Positions 11,399-51,041 of a stretch of DNA of 64,000 bases are shown here, one piece after another (position 1 is the first letter of the stretch; each line of letters begins with the position of its first letter). The stretch is from the NCBI GenBank assembly GCA_000997385.1, contig LCBT01000003.1, positions 192,892 through 256,891 of the forward strand, in the 5' to 3' direction. The position numbers were made by a program, and so were the translations under genes. This DNA is from Candidatus Daviesbacteria bacterium GW2011_GWA1_41_61. Its GTDB lineage: Bacteria; Patescibacteriota; Microgenomatia; Daviesbacterales; UBA10151. A model generated the notes under the pieces. It was not told the DNA's origin and did no database searches. It worked only from the letters and a program-made list of their open reading frames with translations.

Positions 11399-11604
11399 TT
11401 GGGTCATATGAATAAGATGAACATGATAAAATCAAAAAATAGGGGTCGTTCTAAAAGAAAAGTGTTACCGATGTATCTCAGCCTACTCAGAATCGCCTGA
11501 TAAAAATAGAAATGATGAGTTATTGTGTCAACTATAGGACTTGTATCCTCTGGACTAGATGACATTAGAACATTTTTTTACAAATCAAATAGATTGCTAA
11601 CTAT

Positions 11605-12786: not shown

Positions 12787-12839
12787 GGGGCATATTATAG
12801 ACGATTTTGGAGCGGATGTCAAACTATAGGATAACTGTG

Positions 12840-12922
12840 TCCGGAGGGAAGGATTCGAACCTTCGAAGGGAAATCCCGTCAGATTTACAGTCTGATGCAA
12901 TTGGCCACTCTGCCACCTCCGG
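12840..12922 (-). tRNA. tRNA-Tyr (anticodon GTA), type II with a long variable arm
   Basis: Cloverleaf read by eye: acceptor CCGGAGG/CCTCCGG, anticodon stem UCAGA/UCUGA with loop CUGUAAA, T-arm GAAGGTTCGAATCCTTC. Confidence 0.85.
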
Positions 12923-24306: not shown

Positions 24307-24379
24307 GGGCACTTAGCTCAGTGGTAGAGCGCTTACTTGACGTGTAAGATGTCGGGGGTTCAAGTCCCTCAGTGCCCAC
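24307..24379 (+). tRNA. tRNA-Val (anticodon GAC)
   Basis: Acceptor GGGCACT/AGTGCCC, anticodon stem CTTAC/GTAAG, loop TTGACGT. Confidence 0.85.
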
Positions 24380-24383
24380 TACT

Positions 24384-25250
24384 TTACCCTACTCCTGCTC
24401 CACCGGTGTTAGAAAGTCTTCCCCCCTCAGCAGCCTTGTCTAACCTAATATCAGAACCCTTACCAGCAGCTCTTTTACCAGCAATATAAACTGGTTTTTG
24501 GTTTTTTTGAGCTTTAACATTATCCCAAGCTTTTTTGACAGCAATAAAGGATCTGGTATAAACATTTTTGACCTTTTCATATCCCGACTGGAGTCCTGCA
24601 GCTTTGGCCAGCTGTTCAGTACTGCCTATAATGCCCGATCTGGCCTCTTCCTTAGCTTCAATAATTTGAGACTCTCTGGCTTGGGCTGCCTGAAGTTCCT
24701 GGTTCCAAGATTGAGCTCTTAAATTAAATTGTTCCGGCTTTAATTTTTCTGAACCTTTCTTATTTTCACCAGGCTTTTCTTTGCCTTTACCTTGGCCTTT
24801 TTCCCTGCCGGTAACCATATTAAACAGATCAGCAAAAGCTCCACCGCTTTCTAAAACCATACCTTCGGTAAAGGCTAGAACATTTTCAGTAGCCTTGATG
24901 GTATATTCAGAGGTAGAATTCAGTATCTGGTTTAGGGATTCTTGACTGCTTTGAGGTATCCCTGCCTTGGTTTTCTCTACAGATTCTATCTGGATTTCAC
25001 TTTTGGGAAAGATCATCTCCCCGGTGGCAGAAAATTTGGATTCTACAAAAACAGGAGGGATTTCAGTTTGTGGTTCTTCTTTTTTATCTTCCTCCAGGAC
25101 CCTTTGTAGCCGGACAAAAAAATCATCAGGGTTTCTTTGGATGTAATCTTGGACACTCCCCCTTTCCCCTTCTTCCATCCCCCAAAGCTGGGAGTAGTTA
25201 AGCGGTGTCTTAGGTTTATTGTTTGATTGATTAAAGGTCAGGCTAGCCAT
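24384..25250 (-). CDS. Hypothetical protein (288 aa), Lys/Gly-rich C-terminal half
   Basis: ORF only. Confidence 0.5.
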   Translation of the reverse strand: MASLTFNQSNNKPKTPLNYSQLWGMEEGERGSVQDYIQRNPDDFFVRLQRVLEEDKKEEPQTEIPPVFVESKFSATGEMIFPKSEIQIESVEKTKAGIPQSSQESLNQILNSTSEYTIKATENVLAFTEGMVLESGGAFADLFNMVTGREKGQGKGKEKPGENKKGSEKLKPEQFNLRAQSWNQELQAAQARESQIIEAKEEARSGIIGSTEQLAKAAGLQSGYEKVKNVYTRSFIAVKKAWDNVKAQKNQKPVYIAGKRAAGKGSDIRLDKAAEGGRLSNTGGAGVG

Positions 25251-25328
25251 ATTTCAGCCTCTAGTATATCACTTTTAGGGTTGTTTTTCAGTTAGAATTG
25301 TGTAAGAAGAAAAGGCCTAGAGGATTTA

Positions 25329-25352
25329 GTGCCGAGGACAGGAGTTGAACCT
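25329..25352 (-). repeat. 24-nt copy (23/24 identical) of the 3' end of tRNA-Leu(TAG), a candidate att-site remnant
   Basis: gtgccgaggacaggagttgaacc here versus gtgccggggacaggagttgaacc at 28622-28645. Same orientation. Similarity ends exactly at the tRNA boundary. Confidence 0.5.
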
Positions 25353-25409
25353 TTTACTCTCGACAAGCTAAATTATACAACTTTCTTCTATGCTCTTGAA
25401 GAAACAGAA

Positions 25410-25616
25410 CTATTGGCTTTCCAGCTTAAACAACTTAATGATTATCTTAAGATGAAACAGCTTTGGATTATCTAAGATATCCTTTGCCCTTAAATATGCA
25501 GCATAATTTAGCGCAGAATTTTCCTTTAATGGCTGTAAATTTACTTTTTTGCGGTCTATATTAGTTCGATCAATAATATCTATTACAAAATCCCTGTTTA
25601 CTTCATTGGGGGACAT
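25410..25616 (-). CDS. Hypothetical small protein (68 aa)
   Basis: ORF only. Confidence 0.3.
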   Translation of the reverse strand: MSPNEVNRDFVIDIIDRTNIDRKKVNLQPLKENSALNYAAYLRAKDILDNPKLFHLKIIIKLFKLESQ

Positions 25617-25779
25617 TAAATACTAGAGGAGTAGCTATTGCTTTTAGGACTAAAACTGGGTTTGTTTTGTAAATTAAACCAATGGATACAATGTCCTGGC
25701 GCAGAACCGATATACAGTATTTACAAATTGAAGTTAAATCGAGAGTTCTAATTTGCTATAGTCAGCTAATAGAGATATA

Positions 25780-27192
25780 ATGTCAAAAATTATGGGTCTA
25801 TGTGATCTAGAGATGGATCGAAGGAAATTTTTATATACCTTAGGCGTATTAGGCCTAAGCACTGTAATTGGATCTTGCACATCACAGCCTGATAAACTTC
25901 CAGAAGGTACCGCTCCTACACTTCAGCCAAGATTAACCCCTACACCTGGTACAGCATTAATCTCTACACCTGAAACAATACCAATCGTTGAACGAGAGAA
26001 AGGTCCGGCTGGTAAACTTCTAGTATTCACCAATCCGGAGACACACTACGGGCATGAATACTTAGAACAGAATTTGGAAAAGGTTGAAGAAGCCGCAGTA
26101 GTACTGACTAATTCGGATGGTAGTGAACCAAGACGTATTACTAACTCAAACCTAATTTCTCTACCAGCCTGGTCTCCATCAGGTGACAAGTTTGCCCTTC
26201 AGCGGTATGTCAGAGGACCTCAATTCGACTCGAGTGATTTATGGATTCTTGATAAGTTAGGTAATCGTTTGCAACGAACAGGTTTAGTTCCAAGTCCGGC
26301 AAAGTTGTCTTGGTCACCAGATGGAAAGCTTATTATCTTTAGTTCCCGTTTCTATAATTCCCGTTTACAACGGGTTTTCGGTTGGCCACCAGAGCAAAGA
26401 ACATCTTGGGTGGATGGTATTTACTTATACGATCTCCAAAAAGATTTAACAACCCGGATTATTCCGAGCGACGCCGGATTCGACCATGACCCAGCCATCT
26501 CCCCAGACGGATCGAAGATTGTTTTTATCAACCATAAATACGGCGGGCAATTCAGTATTCTCTTGGCTCCGCTCCAACCGCTTACTCTAGACGAGAAATA
26601 TCCGCTTTCTTCTAAGGGCAAGACTCACGAACTAGCTAACGGGCTTGATTCCCTTCTTAATGCAAGCATTAGATTTCAGTGGACCCCTGATGGTAAAAAA
26701 ATTGTTTATATGTTGGAACAAGGTTCTCTAAAGGGTTCTAAAAACAAAGTTTATGTTGCCAATGTAACGAAATTGCCATCTCCTAAACCGCTAGAAATAA
26801 CAATAGATTGTCCTTCATATGTTAAAAACGACCCTTTCCCTGCCTCGGGTAAGCCTGGATCAACTCCAATTACAGAAAACTTTCATATTCTTGACAGTAT
26901 GGATCTATCAACAGATGGTAAAAAAATCGTGGTTAGTTGCCCTGGTTCATTGTTTTTTACTGATATTGACGGTAAAGAGAGAAAAACAATAAAATTGCCA
27001 AAGGCTTTATCAGGACCCCTGGACAATATCAGATGGTTGTCGGGAAATAACAGACTTGCCTTTGTTCATGAAGATCAATATTATTATATTAATGCGGACG
27101 GTTCAGGATTAATGCAAGTAGCATTTGATTTCATGAAACGCACCACCGAGAAACCGATTCCTTTGGGAGTTCTGATTTCTACTGGAAGATAA
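25780..27192 (+). CDS. TolB-like PD40 beta-propeller lipoprotein with a Tat-like signal (alternative start at 25813, MDRRKFLYTLG...VIGSC)
   Basis: Repeated WSPSGDK, SWSPDGKLIIFSS, AISPDGSKIVFIN, QWTPDGKKIVYM, STDGKKIVVS PD40 blades. Lipobox-like IGSC. Confidence 0.7.
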   Translation: MSKIMGLCDLEMDRRKFLYTLGVLGLSTVIGSCTSQPDKLPEGTAPTLQPRLTPTPGTALISTPETIPIVEREKGPAGKLLVFTNPETHYGHEYLEQNLEKVEEAAVVLTNSDGSEPRRITNSNLISLPAWSPSGDKFALQRYVRGPQFDSSDLWILDKLGNRLQRTGLVPSPAKLSWSPDGKLIIFSSRFYNSRLQRVFGWPPEQRTSWVDGIYLYDLQKDLTTRIIPSDAGFDHDPAISPDGSKIVFINHKYGGQFSILLAPLQPLTLDEKYPLSSKGKTHELANGLDSLLNASIRFQWTPDGKKIVYMLEQGSLKGSKNKVYVANVTKLPSPKPLEITIDCPSYVKNDPFPASGKPGSTPITENFHILDSMDLSTDGKKIVVSCPGSLFFTDIDGKERKTIKLPKALSGPLDNIRWLSGNNRLAFVHEDQYYYINADGSGLMQVAFDFMKRTTEKPIPLGVLISTGR

Positions 27193-27324
27193 CATAGATC
27201 ATTAAGGCAAGTAGCTCTACATAATTATAATTTTTTCAGCGACAAAGAGGATCCACTAGCGAACGATATTCGGATTTATGCAAATATTACTATAACCAAC
27301 AGTACAAACCCTTGTGGGATAAAA

Positions 27325-28065
27325 CTATTTGTCTCGTGCTGGCCAAAGAAAGTAATACTCTTCTACCTTTTTACCAACTAAGTTTGCTTCACCAACCTTT
27401 ACCATATTTGCATTGAATTGACTGGTACAACGGAAGATTGGGCTACCATCAGTTCCATAGTGAACTTCTTCAATTTTAATACCTGAAAATTTTTTATTTC
27501 CATCCACTAAACCCTCGATAACATTCGCTTCAGCAAAAATCTTTTCTGCTCCTGGCTTTAAAGTCCTAGCTTCTTGAGGAAAATCCCCGTAACCACCAAT
27601 AAGAAAGACGTTCATAAAACCCAATGTTCTATATTCTTGAGCTAAAGGCCAAAGAAGATGCGGGTTCTGATATTCCCTATAAAAAGTTAGGACTTCACCA
27701 TAGGCAGATCCAAAAACTTCAGGCGGAGTGTTATAAAAAGGTTTCTTGTTGGGGTCTTTTAAATAAATAGACCTCCCCGCCTCAAGATTACTTTTACCAA
27801 CATAGTTTTTACTCTCCAATTGCTTGTAGATTTGACCAAAAGCTTGCTCTCTAAAACCACGCTCACTCCAAAGTGGTTTTATTTTTAAAGGATCACCTCC
27901 TTCGGGTTTTTTATCTACAGTTGGAATTATTGGAGAACTTAGCTTTGTTGCTTTTACACTTCCCTCGGATTTATCTGCAGCACTACATGTGGGAGCAACT
28001 AAAATAGCAATTCCTCCAATAGCCAACTGGAGTAAATTCCTTCTAGTTATAAGTCTTTCAGACAT
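27325..28065 (-). CDS. Tat-signal secreted hypothetical protein
   Basis: N-terminus MSERLITRRNLLQLAIGGIAILVAP is a twin-arginine signal. Confidence 0.55.
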   Translation of the reverse strand: MSERLITRRNLLQLAIGGIAILVAPTCSAADKSEGSVKATKLSSPIIPTVDKKPEGGDPLKIKPLWSERGFREQAFGQIYKQLESKNYVGKSNLEAGRSIYLKDPNKKPFYNTPPEVFGSAYGEVLTFYREYQNPHLLWPLAQEYRTLGFMNVFLIGGYGDFPQEARTLKPGAEKIFAEANVIEGLVDGNKKFSGIKIEEVHYGTDGSPIFRCTSQFNANMVKVGEANLVGKKVEEYYFLWPARDK

Positions 28066-28396
28066 AATAAGTTAGCAGTGTCCCTATATTAGCATAATAG
28101 TAAGCAAGACGCGTTAATAGAGATTTACCAACCAGAGGTTGATATGCCTATTGGTAAATAGAGTTTGGGTCGGAGACGGCAGTCGCTACCGCATATCGGC
28201 TACGGGATCAAAAGTCGCTCGCTTTTACCGTCGCCTACAGCGACCGTAAAACAATTCTTATAAATAAGGATTGTTCGTTCGCCAAAAGACTGTCTCGCAG
28301 AACTCGACAGACTTTTGTTTTGACCCCTCCGCTTAACAACCCATTCTTAGTCAAACCCCTTAATCAATTACCAGATGAATAAAGGGGGTGAAATAT

Positions 28397-28540
28397 ATGC
28401 AACTGCTTACAAAAGAAATAACAACAAAATTACCATTTTTGTATACACAAGAAGACGAAGCAGATCTTACTAGATCAAAAATTACAGTTTCAGCTTCATT
28501 TCCTGTTTTTGCGATACAAAAAGGGTATAAAAACCACTAA
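28397..28540 (+). CDS. Small ORF (47 aa) with a strong Shine-Dalgarno
   Basis: aaagggggtgaaatatATG. MQLLTKEITTKLPFLYTQEDEADLTRSKITVSASFPVFAIQKGYKNH. No homology recognisable. Confidence 0.3.
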   Translation: MQLLTKEITTKLPFLYTQEDEADLTRSKITVSASFPVFAIQKGYKNH

Positions 28541-28619
28541 TGATGAAATGAGTTCGCTCGAACCTGAAAGTAGCTTGATAGAACAAGCTAATCTAAAAAA
28601 TAATCTAAAAAGTTCTCTA

Positions 28620-28704
28620 TGGTGCCGGGGACAGGAGTTGAACCTGCAAGCCTTGCGGCAATAGGTCCTAAACCTATCGCGTCTGCCAGTTTCGCCACCC
28701 CGGC
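28620..28704 (-). tRNA. tRNA-Leu (anticodon TAG), CCA encoded
   Basis: Acceptor GCCGGGG/CCCCGGC, anticodon stem ATAGG/CCTAT with loop TTTAGGA, long variable arm. Confidence 0.85.
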
Positions 28705-28733: not shown

Positions 28734-29452
28734 TTAACCAAACCTGGAAATGGCTGTCTGGTAAGCTTTAATTTCCAGATCATCATCTAGAGGGCTTAGT
28801 TTAATCTTCTTACCATATTTGATATCTAAAACTTTTTGGATAAACCAGTCAGTAAATTGAGGATTCTTTGGCAGTAATGAACCATGCATGTAGCAGCCAA
28901 CAGCATTTTTGTAGATACAGCCTTCTGTATGGTCTTCCCCATTATTACCAAAACCCTTAATAACCTTACCAAGAGGTTGCCCACCCTCTTTTAAGTAAGT
29001 TTTACCCGAATGGTTCTCAAAACCCACGATTAGTTGATCAGTTAACTTGACTATAATGTTGCCTATCATCCGATCATAACTGGCTACAGTATAAACAGGA
29101 AAAAGGTTAACCCCTGGTAACTTTGGTCCATCATGGGGTTTGTAATATTCTCCTAAAAGCTGATAACCTCCACAAATAGATAACAGCGGTACTCCCCTCT
29201 CTATTTCCTCTTTGATTATTTTCCCCTTTCCGCTTTCCTCTAAATCTTTAGCTACTAACGCTTGGGCTTGATCTTGTCCTCCACCAAAAAAGAATAGATC
29301 AACCTCTCCAGCTTTAAGTTTATCCTTTAAGGAGATATTTTTAACTTCAACTCCAATCCCCCTCCACTGAGCCCTTTTTTGTAAGGCAATAATATTGCCC
29401 CTATCTCCATAGATATTCATACAGTCTCCATAGAGATAGCCAATAGTCAGTT
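28734..29452 (-). CDS. gatD: Lipid II isoglutaminyl synthase glutaminase subunit GatD (CobB/CobQ-like GATase)
   Basis: MKLTIGYLYGDCMNIYGDRGNIIAL..., the catalytic SICGGYQLLGEYY Cys, and the HGS motif. The longer ORF start would overlap the tRNA. Confidence 0.75.
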
Positions 29453-29475
29453 TCATAGGGAAATTGTAGCACTTT

Positions 29476-29946
29476 TCACTTCCAAGCATGGATATACGTG
29501 GCAACAATAGCCGGTAAAGTAGAAAGTGGGTGCATTGAGAGGTGGAAGAGTAAGCTGTTCCCTCCTTCGCCCCGGGGGTCTTCTTTAACCAACCATTCAA
29601 CCTCCTTTTTAGACAATAATCCGGGTATTCCTTCATATAACTTGCTCCAAAAAGTTATACCGTCTTCTAATGGTCGGGTAGCGCAATTACGATTTTGACC
29701 AACTTTATCAAGCCACATATTATCTTTCCACCATTCTTCTGGCATTTTTACCTGAGCAATATGTTCAACATAAAGCCTGGTACAAGTTTCCTGTTCCTCT
29801 TTTTCCATAAGAAAAGATGCTTTGATAAATTTTTCATATAAAGATTGGGTTTGAGGATCTTCAAAGATGGGTGGTTGGCTAACATTATTTATTAGTTTTT
29901 GAAGATATTCTTGTTCAATTTTTCCTAATTCTGATTCCAATTTCAT
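29476..29946 (-). CDS. Hypothetical protein (156 aa) between murT and gatD
   Basis: ORF only. Trp-rich. Confidence 0.45.
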   Translation of the reverse strand: MKLESELGKIEQEYLQKLINNVSQPPIFEDPQTQSLYEKFIKASFLMEKEEQETCTRLYVEHIAQVKMPEEWWKDNMWLDKVGQNRNCATRPLEDGITFWSKLYEGIPGLLSKKEVEWLVKEDPRGEGGNSLLFHLSMHPLSTLPAIVATYIHAWK

Positions 29947-30203
29947 AAATCATCTGGAGTTTTATCTGGTTCTAGTTGGCATTCTTCAGGGGTCAGAAAG
30001 TAAAGCTTAATAGCGTGCCATCCCCGCACTGTTCCATACCGAGTTGACCAGGCAGGGACTTCGGTCACTTGACGGGAAGCATAGATCATTTTAAACGGAA
30101 CTCCTCTCCTTTCCAAGGCTCTTCTTAATGCCCGAGACTCAGGAGAATTATCCAGGGTTAAAGTTATTTTCGGTTCTCTCCTAGACTCACCTTCTGCAGT
30201 CAT
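29943..30203 (-). CDS. Hypothetical protein (86 aa)
   Basis: ORF overlapping the downstream ORF by 4 nt. Confidence 0.4.
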   Translation of the reverse strand: MTAEGESRREPKITLTLDNSPESRALRRALERRGVPFKMIYASRQVTEVPAWSTRYGTVRGWHAIKLYFLTPEECQLEPDKTPDDL

Positions 30204-32679: not shown

Positions 32680-32766
32680 GCCGGGGTGGCGAAACTGGTA
32701 CACGCGATAGATTGAGGTTCTATTGCCGCAAGGCTTGCAGGTTCAACTCCTGTCCCCGGCACCATG
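32680..32766 (+). tRNA. tRNA-Leu (anticodon GAG), CCA encoded
   Basis: Acceptor GCCGGGG/CCCCGGC, anticodon loop TTGAGGT. The 3' half is identical to tRNA-Leu(TAG). Confidence 0.85.
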
Positions 32767-34539: not shown

Positions 34540-34611
34540 GCGGCGGTAGTTCAGTGGTAGAATGTCTCGTTGCCAACGAGAAGGTCGCCGGTTCAAATCC
34601 GGTCCGCCGCT
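34540..34611 (+). tRNA. tRNA-Gly (anticodon GCC)
   Basis: Acceptor GCGGCGG/CCGCCGC, anticodon stem TCTCG/CGAGA, loop TTGCCAA. Confidence 0.85.
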
Positions 34612-34612
34612 C

Positions 34613-34840
34613 CTAAGTTAGTCTTTGCAGGTTTTGTTTAGCCTCTTCCAGATGTTGATAAATGTCAGGTGTAATAACAAATCCACTGATGGATGCTAAA
34701 TCTGATGGTGAGGCTTCTCTGCTTCCGGGTTTTTCTATAATTTTATTTACTCTAATAATTCCAGATTCAACCTCTTTTTCTCCAGCGAAACCGTACTTTT
34801 TAAATCCATCTTCAGTAGTATTTTTTTTACTCATGGTCAT
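34613..34840 (-). pseudogene. C-terminal fragment of a GalU-type sugar-1-phosphate nucleotidyltransferase
   Basis: ...IIEKPGSREASPSDLASISGFVITPDIYQHLEE matches the C-terminal EKP...PSNLA..GRYVLTPDIF block of UTP-glucose-1-P uridylyltransferases. The N-terminal 200 aa are absent. Confidence 0.5.
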
Positions 34841-46954: not shown

Positions 46955-47495
46955 GTTGGGCAAAAACTAGTAGTCTTTTTAAAGCTGTGCCTAGGGGGGT
47001 GCAGGTTTGAAGGATTAGCTGATCACCTTGATCTTCTTTTAAATATTGAACTTCATCTGGCCAAACCTCTTTTTTATCCACCACCTGATATTTATACTCC
47101 CGGCCCTCTTTATAGAGAAAGATATTATCACCAAGTTGGAGTTCTCCCAGCCTTAAAAAGGCGGTGTTGTATCTGGTCATCCTCCAGGGGACATCAGAAG
47201 AGTGGGCAAACAAAAAGATAGTTCTTCCTTCTCCCGGTAAAGCACTCCCACGAGCTTGAGCTACTCCCTGCTCCAAGGCCTTTCGATAGACAGCTTGACT
47301 GAAAGGATCAACATCTAAAATTATTGGGGCTTGAGCATTGATTTTGGGGATGTTGATGTAAAAGGAATTACTTACAGCCAAACTAACTGCTGGTGAGGAA
47401 GAATGAGGCAGATAGAGCCTTAAAAAGGGATAATAAGTGAAACCTAGAAGCAGTAGTGACAAGATAATCAATAAATTTCCTAAATTTTTCCTCAT
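46947..47495 (-). CDS. Sortase-family transpeptidase
   Basis: N-terminal TM anchor. FAHS His and LILQTCTP (TLxTC catalytic Cys motif). Arg in ALKRLLVF. Confidence 0.75.
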   Translation of the reverse strand: MRKNLGNLLIILSLLLLGFTYYPFLRLYLPHSSSPAVSLAVSNSFYINIPKINAQAPIILDVDPFSQAVYRKALEQGVAQARGSALPGEGRTIFLFAHSSDVPWRMTRYNTAFLRLGELQLGDNIFLYKEGREYKYQVVDKKEVWPDEVQYLKEDQGDQLILQTCTPLGTALKRLLVFAQPT

Positions 47496-47543
47496 AGAAA
47501 TATTTTAATCATCAAAAATCCCCTATTAAGGGGGTTTTAGTTA

Positions 47544-48698
47544 CTAAGGTTTAATTTTTCGAATCGATGGATCGCGTCCTGGATGAAAACGCAAGTACAG
47601 TCCTAGTAAGAACATTAAAGCACTGATGATGGTCAAGCCTAAGATGGTATAATCTCCGCTGATAGGTAAGACCTCCCCTTCCTCAGCGGCAGCTGCCAGG
47701 ACTTCACCGGCCGGTTGTTGTGGAGCGCTGACTGCAGCTTGTTGAGCAGCTGGTTGAGATGGCGGTTGAGCAGGAGGTTGGGCAGGCTGCTCTTTTTCCT
47801 CCTTTTCCTCATGAGGAGTAATAATGGCCTCTTCTTCCGGACCAATTCTGACTAACTTAATGTTCATCGGACCATTTTCTATGATTGCCTCAAAATCAAT
47901 ATCCCCTGTCTTAATTGATACATCTCCCGAGTTTCCTTCAGCCTCATTATTTCCGGTGTCAGCATCGATATCGACTTCGTCTTCAACATCGGCTCTGTTA
48001 TCTAAAACTACACTAATGTCATTATCTTCATTAACTTTGATGGAGTTGTCAGAGTCTGAGCCATTATCAGCAACCTTTATTGAGATTTCCTTACAGCAAG
48101 ACTCGATATCAACTGAATCAATATTGATATTTTTACTTCTAATCTCTACCCGGCCTTCAATATCCCCGCTGTCAATGGAAACATCTCCGCTGTTTCTATT
48201 GGCGCTGTTACCGCCGGTATTGGCATTAACATCTATGTCATTATTAATTTCTGCCCGTTGATCTATCGAAACATTGGTTTGATTAGAACTGTTTATTTCA
48301 ATATTGTTGTCCGAATCTGAACCGTTGCCGGAAATAGTAGCTTCAGTGGGATTACTGCTGCAACAGGCAATATCAACTGTGGAAACGTTAGCTTGGTTAC
48401 TAACTTCAGTAGTAGTGTTGATATCTCCCGTTTGTATTGAGGCGTCACCCGAGTTGTCAGAGGCACTGTTATTACCACTGTCAGCTGCTTGCTGGACGTT
48501 ACTTCTGATATCAGCATTATTGGATTGTTCAACTGTGGTGTTGGTATCCGAACTTATGGAGATCTGATTGTCAGAGTCTGAGCCGTTACCGGTGATTATT
48601 AGCTCTTCTGCCTGAACATAGGGAGAAAATCCTACCATGATGATTAAAGTTAAAGTAATAGTTAATATCAGTCGGCTGTAACATTTTCCGGTTATCAT
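47544..48698 (-). CDS. Secreted tandem-repeat surface protein (3 x ~88-aa repeats) with a C-terminal LPISG, hydrophobic, basic sorting-signal-like tail
   Basis: Signal peptide. Repeats ITGNGSDSDNxI...ADTGNN...GDVSIxTGDI, each with a CC pair. PAQPPAQPP linker. Tail VLPISGDYTILGLTIISALMFLLGLYLRFHPGRDPSIRKIKP. Confidence 0.65.
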   Translation of the reverse strand: MITGKCYSRLILTITLTLIIMVGFSPYVQAEELIITGNGSDSDNQISISSDTNTTVEQSNNADIRSNVQQAADSGNNSASDNSGDASIQTGDINTTTEVSNQANVSTVDIACCSSNPTEATISGNGSDSDNNIEINSSNQTNVSIDQRAEINNDIDVNANTGGNSANRNSGDVSIDSGDIEGRVEIRSKNINIDSVDIESCCKEISIKVADNGSDSDNSIKVNEDNDISVVLDNRADVEDEVDIDADTGNNEAEGNSGDVSIKTGDIDFEAIIENGPMNIKLVRIGPEEEAIITPHEEKEEKEQPAQPPAQPPSQPAAQQAAVSAPQQPAGEVLAAAAEEGEVLPISGDYTILGLTIISALMFLLGLYLRFHPGRDPSIRKIKP

Positions 48699-48776
48699 TT
48701 CTTCTTTTACCTATATATTTTATGAAGCTCAGGTATTAAAAAGATTAAGGTAATGTAAGAAAAGTGTCACAATTGT

Positions 48777-51041
48777 TTATCTTACTCTGCCATAATCTCT
48801 AAGCTTTTTAGTTGCCAGTGTCAGTATTAACAGAAGTGGAGCCAAAGGTAGAAGCCAAGCTAAATTAAAGGTAATTGTTTTGGCTTCGTTTTGTGTCCCT
48901 TTAGTCAGTGTTACCGCTTGTCCACCGGAAGTTTCTTCAAAGCTTTCCCCGGCTACTTCGGCAGCATCTTCTGAATCATTATTTGAATATATCAATCCTC
49001 CGGTGTGAAGGATTTTTTTAATTGGTTCAGCTACGGCTGAGGCAACTGAGGTATTGGTATTATTAGCTGGAGCTGATTGATTATTTTGGCTGTTGGAATT
49101 ACTGAGAGCAGTTTGGTTAGATTGCTGATTTCCTTGCTCAACTGGATTATTGCCAGCCTGAGTTGTGTTTTCAGTTTGGACCTCTTTTTGATATCCGGGT
49201 CCGACGAAATCCCCAATCCATTTGCCGAAGACATTGATAGTGACGACTGTCAGCCTGCCACCCCCCACAATATTGTTATTGACGAAGTTAACTAAATTGG
49301 CCACGATATTGGCATCACCGGTGGTAATAGATGAATTTCCGCCGGTATTTTTAGAAGCGCTGTTACCGCCGGTATTGGCAAAAAGATTAATGTTATTTAA
49401 AATTTTGGCTACATTATTTTGGACGGTGGTATTACTTGCAGTTTGATCTATGGAGGCTGTATTTTGGGAATCTGAACCGTTCCCTTGATTGGTAGCGGTA
49501 ATATCACCGCTACTGTTTATAGTAAACTGGGTTCCTTTTGACCCGGCATAATTGGTGCCATAAGAGGAGCCAATGATTTTACCGACCCATTCCCCCGCCT
49601 CATTGACCAAAACTAACCACCAGTCTCCACCGGTTATATTGGAGTTGGCGATATTTAAAGTTTGGCTGTCAACATTGGCATCACCGGTTTGGATTTGAGA
49701 GCTGCCTCCGGTATTTTTATTGGTCTCGTTGTCTCCGGTGGCGGCTTGGAGGTTTAAGTTGTTTTCAATTTGAGCAATATTAGTTTGGAAAGTTTGATTA
49801 GTTGAGTCCTGATCTAAAGTTGCCGTGTTTTGGGAGCCAGATCCGTTATCTGTATTAGAAACTGTGGTAGTGGAGGTAGTTCCTAATACAGGTAAGATAA
49901 TATCTCCTATTAAATCTCCGAAGATATTGACAATACCCAAGACCACTTGGCCGGCGATATTGTTATTAATAAAGTTTAAAACATTGGCGGCAGCATTAGC
50001 ATCGCCGGTAGTAATGGTTGAATCTCCGCCGGTATTTTTATCGGCATCATTATCGCCGCTGTTAGAGGATAAAGTCAGGTTATTTTCTAAAGTAGCATCG
50101 TTATTTTGAAAAGTTTGACTGTCGCTAGTTTGTTCCACCTGAGCGGAGTTAGTTGAATCTGTGCCGTTATCAGTATTGGCGACCAAGGTGTCTGAAAAAG
50201 CAGAACACCCTAAAACACAGCCGGCAGCTAAATTTAATATCAGATCACCATTTTGATCATCTACTACGTTAAATTCAGAGACAGCCACCCCGGCTAAATT
50301 GGTATTTAGGGCGGTAATAAGGTTAACTGTAGTATTGGCATCACCGGTGTCGATACTTGAGCTGCCGACATTTTCCGAAGTGGAATTTTTACCGGTGTTG
50401 GTATCAAGGTCTAAGCTATTTTGTGCATCAGCGAGGTTATTTGAAACGGTGGTAATACCGGAATCACTATTTAAGGAAGCAGAGTTATCAGATCTTGAGC
50501 CGTTATCAGTATTTTCTACAGTTACACTGCTGTCACCCGGTAAGGTTGCCGCAGAATAGTTTTCATTAGCAGATGTAGTTACTGTAGCTGTGTTTAAGGC
50601 ATTTCCGGTGGTAATTTGAGGGTCCCCTACCTCCCCGTCTTTGGACTCCCCTCCGGTAGTTTGAGAGACTTCATTGTCTATCGGTGGTGTTGTATTTGAT
50701 GAGTTGGAAGTATCTTCAGTTAAGCTTTCAGTTGGGGTATCAGAGGGGGTGGAAGGCGGGACAAGTGTTTCTTCTGGCAGTGATTCTGTAGAAGTGGGGG
50801 ATATTTCTTTTAAAGTAGAGTTTTCAGTTGGAGCAGGCGATGGTTCAAGCAGGGATTCTAAAGTAGGCGCTTCTGGCGGTGTTGGTTCAGCCGGAGGAGG
50901 TGGTGGTGCGGACTGCTCTGCCCTGGGTGTTGGTTCAGCCGGAGATGTAGGCGCTTCCAAGGCTGTGACTGTAGCTACTTGACTAAAAAGTAAAGTAATA
51001 ACTGTTATTACTGATAAAGTTTTTTTAAGTTTTTTGATCAT
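48777..51041 (-). CDS. Large secreted tandem-repeat protein (754 aa) of the same repeat family, Pro/Thr-rich N-terminal stalk, C-terminal TM anchor
   Basis: Signal peptide. PT-rich region. At least 5 repeats NTDNGSxSxN...NTGGxS.I.TGDAN...N.NN.IxG. C-terminus LAWLLPLAPLLLILTLATKKLRDYGRVR. Confidence 0.65.
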   Translation of the reverse strand: MIKKLKKTLSVITVITLLFSQVATVTALEAPTSPAEPTPRAEQSAPPPPPAEPTPPEAPTLESLLEPSPAPTENSTLKEISPTSTESLPEETLVPPSTPSDTPTESLTEDTSNSSNTTPPIDNEVSQTTGGESKDGEVGDPQITTGNALNTATVTTSANENYSAATLPGDSSVTVENTDNGSRSDNSASLNSDSGITTVSNNLADAQNSLDLDTNTGKNSTSENVGSSSIDTGDANTTVNLITALNTNLAGVAVSEFNVVDDQNGDLILNLAAGCVLGCSAFSDTLVANTDNGTDSTNSAQVEQTSDSQTFQNNDATLENNLTLSSNSGDNDADKNTGGDSTITTGDANAAANVLNFINNNIAGQVVLGIVNIFGDLIGDIILPVLGTTSTTTVSNTDNGSGSQNTATLDQDSTNQTFQTNIAQIENNLNLQAATGDNETNKNTGGSSQIQTGDANVDSQTLNIANSNITGGDWWLVLVNEAGEWVGKIIGSSYGTNYAGSKGTQFTINSSGDITATNQGNGSDSQNTASIDQTASNTTVQNNVAKILNNINLFANTGGNSASKNTGGNSSITTGDANIVANLVNFVNNNIVGGGRLTVVTINVFGKWIGDFVGPGYQKEVQTENTTQAGNNPVEQGNQQSNQTALSNSNSQNNQSAPANNTNTSVASAVAEPIKKILHTGGLIYSNNDSEDAAEVAGESFEETSGGQAVTLTKGTQNEAKTITFNLAWLLPLAPLLLILTLATKKLRDYGRVR

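Follow-up and report, generated by a model that had tools for sequence, protein, structure and literature searches.

A probable decayed large serine recombinase element in the 3' part of a tRNA-Leu(TAG) gene of a Daviesbacteria genome

Positions 25329-28704 of a 64,000-nucleotide stretch of Candidatus Daviesbacteria bacterium GW2011_GWA1_41_61 (contig LCBT01000003.1; the whole stretch is called the window here) form a small islet between a tRNA-Leu(TAG) gene and a displaced copy of the 3' end of that gene. The islet is very probably the decayed and immobilised remnant of one integrative element of the large serine recombinase (LSR) type, possibly of two stacked elements, in the 3' part of tRNA-Leu(TAG). 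It forms part of the same strongly favoured reading that the element belongs to a local family whose LSR gene is terminal in the element, is directed toward the tRNA, and extends over the tRNA 3' end. The evidence comprises the repeat of the tRNA end, the presence of the displaced fragment in the ancestral tRNA slot, remnants of an LSR gene and of a DUF2958 gene, a conserved distal end, relatives in which the site is empty, and the intact LSR elements that relatives have at this tRNA and at others. A preliminary description of the islet, made from the sequence of the window, had proposed site-specific integration into the tRNA gene, and both the comparative loci and the recombinase remnant support that proposal.

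The intact tRNA-Leu(TAG) gene lies at 28620-28704 on the minus strand, encodes its CCA, and is called by ARAGORN and by the Rfam tRNA model (52.9 bits). As at one end of the tRNA islands catalogued by Islander, it forms the attL-type side of the islet, with its core at 28622-28645. The attR-type core is the displaced tRNA-Leu 3' end at 25329-25352, which lies downstream of the gene in the orientation of the tRNA (minus strand), as a cognate 3' fragment does in such islands. A mismatch search showed that GTGCCGAGGACAGGAGTTGAACCT at 25329-25352 and GTGCCGGGGACAGGAGTTGAACCT at 28622-28645 are identical at 23 of 24 nucleotides (nt) in direct orientation, as had been described, and none of 100 dinucleotide-preserving shuffles contained a match at three or fewer mismatches. 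The repeat corresponds to positions 60-83 of the 85 positions of the tRNA. It begins at base three of the 5' strand of the T-stem, so that the T-stem is partly included, and continues through the T-loop, the 3' strand of the acceptor, and the discriminator as far as the initial C of CCA. The single mismatch in the fragment, as read from the sequence, is a change of C68 to T, which still allows a G-U wobble with G5. The earlier claim that similarity ends at the tRNA boundary also holds: Smith-Waterman alignment of the 80 nt outside each repeat edge scored no higher than shuffled sequence, and the edges are sharp. The idea that the fragment is a decayed full tRNA was rejected because homology stops at the edges of the 24-mer. 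Neither ARAGORN nor Rfam calls a tRNA or pseudo-tRNA at 25329-25420, where a second complete tRNA gene around the 24-mer would have spoken against an insertion, and an Rfam scan of 20-36 kb at E<=1 returned tRNAs only.

Within the window, the exact 24-nt core also occurs in tRNA-Leu(GAG) at 32739-32762, inverted relative to the fragment; the two tRNA-Leu genes are 93% identical over 86 nt. A search for further copies, proposed earlier as a check, therefore gives a second match, but the pairing with tRNA-Leu(TAG) stands: of the two genes, only tRNA-Leu(TAG) has the side and the orientation that fit an attL/attR pair. As a separate observation, tRNA-Leu(TAG) (28619-28704) and tRNA-Leu(GAG) (32680-32765) are inverted repeats 4 kb apart that have the exact 24-nt core in common. 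They enclose gatD, two extra open reading frames (ORFs), murT, and a gene for 217 amino acids (aa), and this arrangement is a possible substrate for inversion.

The locus was compared across relatives by anchoring on GatD. The GatD-like glutamine amidotransferase gene (28734-29456, minus strand; Pfam GATase_3, E=7.9e-41) flanks the element on the outside. The comparison used 160 loci, 80 from species-representative genomes and 80 from metagenomes; the best of them have a GatD identity of 75-76% and are labelled Candidatus Daviesbacteria or Microgenomates. About 90 non-redundant loci have a conserved order, namely MurT, GatD, tRNA-Leu(TAG), a variable stretch, a gene of about 200 aa, tRNA-Val(GAC), and (DUF5665) ThrRS. 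The tRNA-Leu(TAG) gene comes directly after GatD in nearly all relatives, and the family of about 200 aa occupies the interval from tRNA-Leu(TAG) to tRNA-Val(GAC) in the majority of Daviesbacteria. The gene on the other outer flank of the islet (24384-25250, minus strand, 288 aa) is a divergent member of this family, and its product is matched by a profile of 27 orthologues from related loci at E=2.2e-10. A word-indexed search with the 288-aa protein found two homologues only, 99% and 64% identical, the latter on a 1.7-kb contig on which the region upstream of the gene aligns ambiguously. The protein is fast-evolving: its gene in GCA_000994545.1 (locus L093) has a 117-nt in-frame deletion (window 24415-24531), which gives a 249-aa product.

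In at least 10 relatives (loci L008, L010, L015, L022, L035, L042, L108, L135/136, L137, and L140), the 3' end of tRNA-Leu(TAG) is only 31-58 nt from the gene of about 200 aa. In the window, the 24-nt fragment holds the place of the tRNA, 78 nt upstream of the start codon of 24384-25250, and the intact tRNA-Leu(TAG) is displaced 3.27 kb from the fragment. The islet genes are absent from the corresponding slot in all of the approximately 90 relatives. An empty site at tRNA-Leu, which the preliminary description had suggested looking for, is thus found at the family level in at least 10 related species, and none of the approximately 90 loci has the same content without an indel at this tRNA. The islet appears to be fixed in the species of the window, to which the groundwater genomes GCA_000994095.1 and GCA_000994545.1 also belong. 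It occurs in identical context in all 23 same-species contigs from different metagenomes, with no empty site in any of them. The evidence from empty sites is therefore of the family level and not of the strain level.

The end of the islet next to the intact tRNA contains the remnant of a recombinase gene. A 50-aa ORF with a strong Shine-Dalgarno sequence, which a program calls at 28388-28540 (plus strand), had been described as one of two small ORFs of the islet. A low-stringency tblastn search with it showed that its two halves match different relatives, and it is not a gene in its own right. The first half (28388-28463, plus strand) is a 5' remnant of a DUF2958 gene, consisting of the Shine-Dalgarno sequence and about 25 codons, and the ORF runs past 28463 into decayed sequence. 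The remnant matches a full-length 102-aa homologue in a relative (L123:4790-5095; Pfam DUF2958, E=2.2e-13) with 56% identity over 43 aa in tblastn (E=4e-6) and 88% over 76 nt in blastn (E=6e-19). The DUF2958 identity came through this homologue; a direct Pfam scan of the 50-aa ORF returned nothing, even at E<=10. In that relative, the DUF2958 gene and a DUF3800 gene, both intact, are part of a 1.5-kb insert (L123 3629-5177) just 3' of tRNA-Leu(CAG). The insert splits the usual Leu-Leu-Val-Phe tRNA cluster, and no tRNA-end repeat was detected there. In L036, which is related to L123, an LSR C-terminal remnant lies between DUF2958 and tRNA-Leu(GAG).

The second half belongs to an LSR 3' remnant (28464-28664, plus strand) of about 64 codons and a stop, which runs toward tRNA-Leu(TAG) and has its last 45 nt in common with it. 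It matches residues 492-555 of the LSR of a relative (L105) with 62.5% identity in tblastn (E=2e-15); at the DNA level, the identity is 73.9% over 249 nt. The match does not depend on the tRNA: in BLASTP, the part outside it (28464-28619) has 31/52 identities with the L105 protein (E=1e-16) and 27/52 with that of L114 (E=4e-12). The L105 protein is 562 aa long and consists of Resolvase, Recombinase, and Zn_ribbon_recom domains. The frame of the remnant, which differs from that of the DUF2958 half, enters the tRNA in antisense for 45 nt and ends in ..KSSLWCRGQELNLQALRQ*. A deletion of at least 1.7 kb has thus joined DUF2958 codon ~25 to LSR codon ~492. Independent support came from a search of 1.84 billion representative proteins, among which the remnant has 23 relatives, one of them a 569-aa LSR and many of them short fragments. 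After '..SSLWC', several of these have C-termini like tRNA antisense (GREDLNLH, PGEELNLH, PGEESNLH).

The window has no intact LSR gene with Resolvase, Recombinase, and Zn-ribbon domains; residues from about 492 to the end are what is kept. The earlier statement that no integrase is present is thus true of an intact gene, but it missed the LSR 3' remnant. Six-frame Pfam and PHROG scans of the ORFs and non-coding ends of the islet also found no integrase remnant. They were silent because the LSR remnant is too short and divergent, and it surfaced by comparison with L105. No other recombinase was found in the islet, among the 42 further ORFs of the window that reach 140 aa, or among 49 same-slot ORFs of relatives, and no cognate LSR occurs in the 64-kb window. 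In viral contigs, no match was obtained with the 24-mer, with DUF2958, with the LSR of L105, or with an alignment of the LSR pair.

It could be argued that no insertion took place, and that the region is ancestral and was lost elsewhere, the 24-mer being a partial tRNA duplication or a dead second tRNA-Leu. Duplicates of tRNA ends are indeed common in this lineage, and the 24-mer matches tRNA-Leu(GAG) equally well. Among 297 tRNAs of 90 loci and the window, 31 tRNA-end fragments were found, and their arrangement is far from random: 14/20 of the 3' fragments lie downstream of their own tRNA in the same orientation, and 9/10 of the 5' fragments lie upstream of theirs, also in the same orientation. 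Most fragments are 25-270 nt from the tRNA, and such distances are too short to bound an element. The similarity at 25329-25352 is sharply bounded and not evenly decayed like that of a dead gene, the approximately 90 relatives are without the islet genes, and the LSR and DUF2958 remnants lie exactly at the tRNA-proximal end. An ancestral region is accordingly the least credible of the explanations considered here, with hardly any probability left to it. As a related observation, in three species (L001 10920-10990, L013 11015-11085, and L025 3000-3072) the 3' half of tRNA-Leu(TAG), beginning within the anticodon loop, is present a second time behind the gene, after a gap of about 15-20 nt that ends in a conserved AAAATTGCAAG.

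The far end of the islet is also recognisable. Directly after the tRNA fragment, 25353-25475 (plus strand) encodes a peptide of about 40 aa, ..LNYTTFFYALEETELLAFQLKQLNDYLKMKQLWII*, in frame with the antisense reading of the fragment. By blastn, the segment is 76.7% identical over 90 nt to L017 11552-11641 and 74.3% identical over 105 nt to L029 1404-1506. For the peptide, the identity is 59% in an alignment of 39 aa and 63% in one of 30 aa, with a coding-like pattern of substitutions. In L017, the segment comes directly after a tRNA-Leu 3'-end fragment, 1.2 kb downstream of tRNA-Leu(TAG), and the peptide is again in frame with the antisense reading of the fragment. Such an in-frame distal peptide would be expected if a gene once read across attP. 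The L017 fragment (11504-11519, ..CCTGTCCCCGGCACCA) matches the tRNA-Leu of the window and not the end (..CCTCTCCTCGGCAC) of the tRNA-Leu(TAG) of L017 itself, which lies at 12798-12881. It would not pair with the 5' strand of that tRNA and is, therefore, not simply the displaced original end.

Intact LSR genes occur at tRNA 3' ends in the relatives. A tblastn search with two LSRs identified eight LSR genes in the fetched Daviesbacteria loci, one of them partial (L015). All eight converge on a tRNA gene and overlap its 3' end by 12-84 nt, with the LSR frame crossing into the tRNA. The partner is tRNA-Leu(TAG) in L114 and L111, tRNA-Leu(GAG) in L105, tRNA-Leu(CAG) in L017, L147, and L136, tRNA-Gly(GCC) in L082, and tRNA-Gln(TTG) for the partial gene in L015. 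The genes of L105, L114, L111, L017, L147, L136, and L082 are intact, and the LSRs of the relatives are 508-562 aa long. Daviesbacteria LSRs are about 23% identical to phage LSRs.

Two of these loci have an intact LSR at tRNA-Leu(TAG). The LSR of L114 belongs to the subfamily of the window (83% identical to that of L105) and lies at the same GatD/tRNA-Leu(TAG) site. The element there is no shorter than 7.6 kb. Its genes for an HTH regulator, for a HerA/FtsK/TraG-like ATPase, and for a protein with a weak Replic_Relax match form a genuine mobile-element backbone. In L111, a complete element of 4.68 kb is bounded by the stop codon of GatD and by an inverted tRNA-Leu(TAG). Directly after that stop codon comes GTGCCGAGGAG, which repeats 11 nt of the tRNA end, at exactly the position of the intact tRNA end in seven empty-site relatives. 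The LSR is the sole recombinase-like gene among the genes tested in this element.

These loci bear on the possibility that the islet was a classical tyrosine-integrase island from which the integrase gene was deleted without trace, the LSR remnant being derived from a second element or incidental. By Islander statistics, tyrosine integrases that use tRNA sites do so most often with a core of this class, which reaches from the T-stem to the 3' end. A statement from 2014 had it that no serine integrase was known to target tRNA genes, and the frames of the two islet ends do not match, which allows for two elements. Against this stand the lack of any tyrosine recombinase in the islet, in the rest of the window, and in the 49 same-slot ORFs of relatives, the overlap of every one of the eight LSR genes with a tRNA 3' end, and the element of L111, in which occupied and empty sites compare cleanly and the LSR is the only recombinase-like gene among those tested. 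We regard a lost tyrosine integrase as quite improbable.

LSR elements also vary within the species of the window. Two contigs of this species (L081/L082, 1-3530) are 99.98% identical to the window and match it through tRNA-Gly(GCC) (34540-34613), and diverge exactly at the 3' end of that tRNA (window 34540-34618). Beyond this point, they have a gene for a 534-aa LSR, 22 nt of which coincide with tRNA-Gly, as well as two ORFs (92 and 487 aa) and Prim-Pol/PriCT_1 genes. The LSR ends in ..GAADRI*, its stop codon being the TGA in the T-loop antisense. The window instead continues beyond tRNA-Gly with a small ORF, DUF378, tRNA-Gln, and an alginate lyase gene. The far end of the element of L081/L082 lies off the contig. 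Within one species, an LSR element at a tRNA end is thus present in some strains and absent from others.

An active-looking LSR element in some strains of the same species raises the question of whether the islet is a non-autonomous satellite, similar to a cis-mobilizable element (CIME), with usable att sites and an LSR supplied in trans from the genome or from a co-infecting element. The nearly intact core copies (23/24) would suit such an element. The strain-variable LSR, however, is about 30% identical to the LSR subfamily of the window and lies at tRNA-Gly. All 23 metagenome contigs have the islet in the same context, with no empty site. The preliminary description had left open a degraded or a satellite element; the first of these stands, and the second is the less likely of the two, since a broken recombinase gene of the element's own is a sign of plain decay and not of satellite design. 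Little probability, on balance, attaches to a satellite.

Taken as a decayed LSR element, the islet may have arisen as follows. The LSR gene of a circular element would have had, at its 3' end, a duplicate of the final ~24 nt of the tRNA. The LSR would have acted on the T-arm/acceptor region of the chromosomal tRNA, recombining it with an attP located within the end of the LSR gene or directly behind it. The copy on the element would then have completed the tRNA (now 28620-28704), and the original 3' end would have been displaced by 3.27 kb, to 25329-25352, a short way upstream of the conserved neighbour gene. Later deletions would have removed at least 1.7 kb of backbone, one of them producing the DUF2958-LSR fusion described above. 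Two genes for proteins exported by the twin-arginine translocation (Tat) pathway, non-coding DNA, and both element ends would have been left over, unable to move by themselves and fixed in the species. The identity of the cores (24 nt here, 11 nt in L111) would have been set by the rebuilding of the tRNA and not by a need of the enzyme. We infer from the comparison of sequences that an LSR was the integrating enzyme, where the crossover was located, and in which order the steps of decay took place; for LSR-mediated integration at a tRNA, the support is the association of all eight LSR genes with the tRNA 3' ends that they overlap.

Several observations weigh against a decayed LSR element. The GatD-anchored scans of genomes and metagenomes contained no close relative with an empty site. 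The 24-nt repeat, like the 11-nt repeat of L111, is longer than the common cores of 2-8 bp in described serine-integrase elements, which insert in protein-coding genes and usually disrupt them (PMC8092301, PMC5704250); the extra length may reflect the rebuilding of the tRNA end. The short distances of most tRNA-end duplicates in the lineage are poorly explained by the decay of elements. The reading frames at the ends differ as well: the tail in the window is in frame B (VPRTGVEP-FTLD..), the LSR remnant of the window is in frame A, and the tail in L017 is in frame C (GAGDRI-QIES..). The mismatch may mean that the ends belong to two successive elements, that indels occurred, or that the tail is unrelated to the LSR. 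Finally, neither GC content, skews, nor tetranucleotide distance gives a signal of foreign origin in the islet.

The composition check that had been suggested for the islet is in fact negative throughout. Its GC content is 38.4%, compared with 39.1% for the window, and its tetranucleotide distance is at the 55th percentile of same-sized segments. The strongest tetranucleotide outlier of the window lies elsewhere, at ~47000-50500, where GC is 42-43% against a mean of 39%. In blastn searches, all matches of the islet to phages were to tRNA-Leu genes, and the one match to plasmids (a Mycoplasmopsis record) extends little beyond the tRNA end of the query.

The two larger genes of the islet look like ordinary accessory genes carried as cargo, as judged from their predicted products and homologues. 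The first (25780-27192, plus strand) encodes a 470-aa PD40/TolB-like beta-propeller (Pfam PD40, E=3.7e-14), in which a twin-arginine motif, DRRKFL, and a lipobox-like VIGSC can be read, in line with the earlier designation as a Tat lipoprotein with a TolB-like propeller. Its homologues are 49-79% identical and are located in unrelated housekeeping neighbourhoods, with no tRNA nearby. The second (27325-28065, minus strand) encodes a 246-aa hypothetical protein with a twin-arginine signal, TRRNLL, and no Pfam match. Of its seven homologues, one has the Pfam TAT_signal domain and one is named a twin-arginine signal protein, in agreement with its description as a Tat-secreted hypothetical protein. 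These homologues also lie in unrelated neighbourhoods, where a PD40 gene is not adjacent. Homologues of both genes occur in other contigs of the candidate phyla radiation (CPR) at 46-79% identity. The possibility that the two genes form a linked mobile pair was rejected, as the homologues sit separately among housekeeping genes.

The remainder of the islet consists of a small ORF and a non-coding spacer. The ORF (25410-25616, minus strand, 68 aa), the other small ORF of the preliminary description, is possibly a truncated CAP/SCP-domain gene that was cut near the element end. Its product matches the N-terminal part of Pfam CAP weakly (E=0.015, profile positions 2-37 of 117) and a PHROG 'sporulation protein' at E=0.0024, and all fetched loci are without a homologue. 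The spacer (28066-28387) lies between the divergent 246-aa gene and the DUF2958 remnant. It contains several hairpins, and 28100-28390 folds somewhat better than shuffled sequence on both strands (plus strand, z=-2.7; minus strand, z=-3.0), in line with the earlier description of a structured stretch. It has no Rfam family and no similar sequence in the other loci.

The slot beside tRNA-Leu(TAG) is filled with unrelated cargo in almost every species, without recombinases. For example, relatives have genes there for an RCC1 propeller, a glycoside hydrolase, PEP carboxylase, APH(6), SOD, and AbiEii. This variety, together with the native-like composition of the islet and the presence elsewhere of a homologue 79% identical to the PD40 gene, could point to a hot spot of exchange. 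The islet would then be an already-decayed segment gained from another Daviesbacteria by homologous recombination through flanks that are conserved (tRNA/GatD and, at the opposite end, the gene of about 200 aa/ThrRS), with no site-specific event in this lineage. The att-like repeat and the LSR remnant would be left unexplained by such an exchange, their origin merely being shifted to another genome, and no donor with the same islet was found among the fetched loci. Acquisition in this manner appears unlikely, and a decayed element that integrated in this lineage is preferred.

The tRNAs at this slot (the equivalent of window 24307-28704) are themselves mobile in orientation. Both tRNA-Leu(TAG) and tRNA-Val(GAC) flip between species, while GatD, the gene of about 200 aa, and ThrRS keep their places (L001-L050, L099-L150). 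The 3' end of an inverted tRNA-Leu abuts or overlaps the GatD stop codon. The variable cargo and the tRNA flips suggest repeated site-specific activity at these tRNAs. On the far side of GatD, two hypothetical genes (156 and 86 aa) at 29476-30203 separate it from MurT in this species only. MurT and GatD abut or overlap in the approximately 90 relatives, and 29476-30203 resembles a second small species-specific insertion inside murT-gatD.

The islet resembles several known systems, and differs from each. In common with the tRNA islands of Islander/TIGER, such as lambda-like prophages and integrative and conjugative elements, it has a regenerated intact tRNA, a displaced 3' fragment in the same orientation, cargo in between, an empty site in other genomes, and a core of the T-stem-to-3'-end class. 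By the Islander definition, an island must contain an integrase gene, and the term integrase covers tyrosine recombinases only; the islet, in contrast, has no tyrosine integrase and only a 64-codon trace of an LSR, is 3.27 kb long, and is visibly decayed. The LSRs of the relatives have the Resolvase, Recombinase, and Zn-ribbon architecture of described LSR elements (phiC31 and Bxb1 prophages, Tn4451/Tn5397, SCCmec, and the streptococcal integrative and mobilizable elements in rumA), in which the recombinase gene is likewise at the element edge. Unlike in those elements, the predicted target here is a tRNA that would be rebuilt, the repeats are 11-24 nt, and the LSR frame runs into the tRNA. 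A survey of thousands of LSRs considered protein-coding targets only, with tRNA unmentioned (PMC10083194), and a 2025 TIGER/Islander announcement has no table of integrase type by target. Cases of LSRs at tRNAs may already be catalogued in recent island databases, so that the degree of novelty is uncertain.

With CIMEs and with the tycheposon remnants in the islands of Prochlorococcus (bioRxiv 10.1101/2020.12.28.424599), the islet has in common a streamlined genome, a variable slot by a tRNA, partial tRNAs, broken recombinases, and cargo that is kept. The tycheposon remnants beside Prochlorococcus tRNAs are the closest ecological parallel. Tycheposons have a tyrosine recombinase and a replication module; the islet, by contrast, is that of a CPR bacterium, and the scans of it showed no tyrosine recombinase, its recombinase being an LSR. 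Some recombinase genes extend across the attP of their own element, for example, intP of Mx8 and int of SSV1. In these, as in the integration-dependent immunity of mycobacteriophages, the att core lies in the 3' end of a gene and integration alters the C-terminus. Those systems involve tyrosine integrases or a repressor gene, in contrast to the LSR here, for which a role of the C-terminus is putative.

By itself, the islet is ordinary: it is fixed in its species and carries two genes for Tat-exported proteins. The part of interest, and one that deserves follow-up, is the overlap between LSR genes and tRNA 3' ends. It is conceivable, and we offer this tentatively on the strength of the sequence comparisons, that Daviesbacteria, and perhaps other CPR bacteria, have an undescribed lineage of LSRs that targets the 3' ends of tRNAs (Leu-TAG, Leu-CAG, Leu-GAG, Gly-GCC, and Gln-TTG), rebuilds the tRNA, and has its attP in its own last codons. 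Under this tentative proposal, integration would swap the C-terminal tail of the LSR for tRNA-antisense residues or a stop in the T-loop, and the original tail (e.g., the 25353-25475 peptide) would be left at the far end of the element, so that the C-terminus could act as a switch between the integrated and the excised state. The proposal would also make such elements the source of the recombinase-free variable slots by tRNAs in these tiny genomes.

As a rule of thumb, tyrosine integrases use tRNA genes and serine integrases cut protein-coding genes; if these LSRs do integrate at tRNA genes, this rule would fail. Serine integrases are favoured for genome engineering, as their sites are short and no host factors are needed, and LSRs with a conserved tRNA as the natural target, repaired on insertion, would then be attractive candidates for that use. 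CPR bacteria have genomes of about 1 Mb and few known mobile elements. Integration of this kind, if true, would provide a mechanism by which they gain accessory genes at tRNA-flanked slots.

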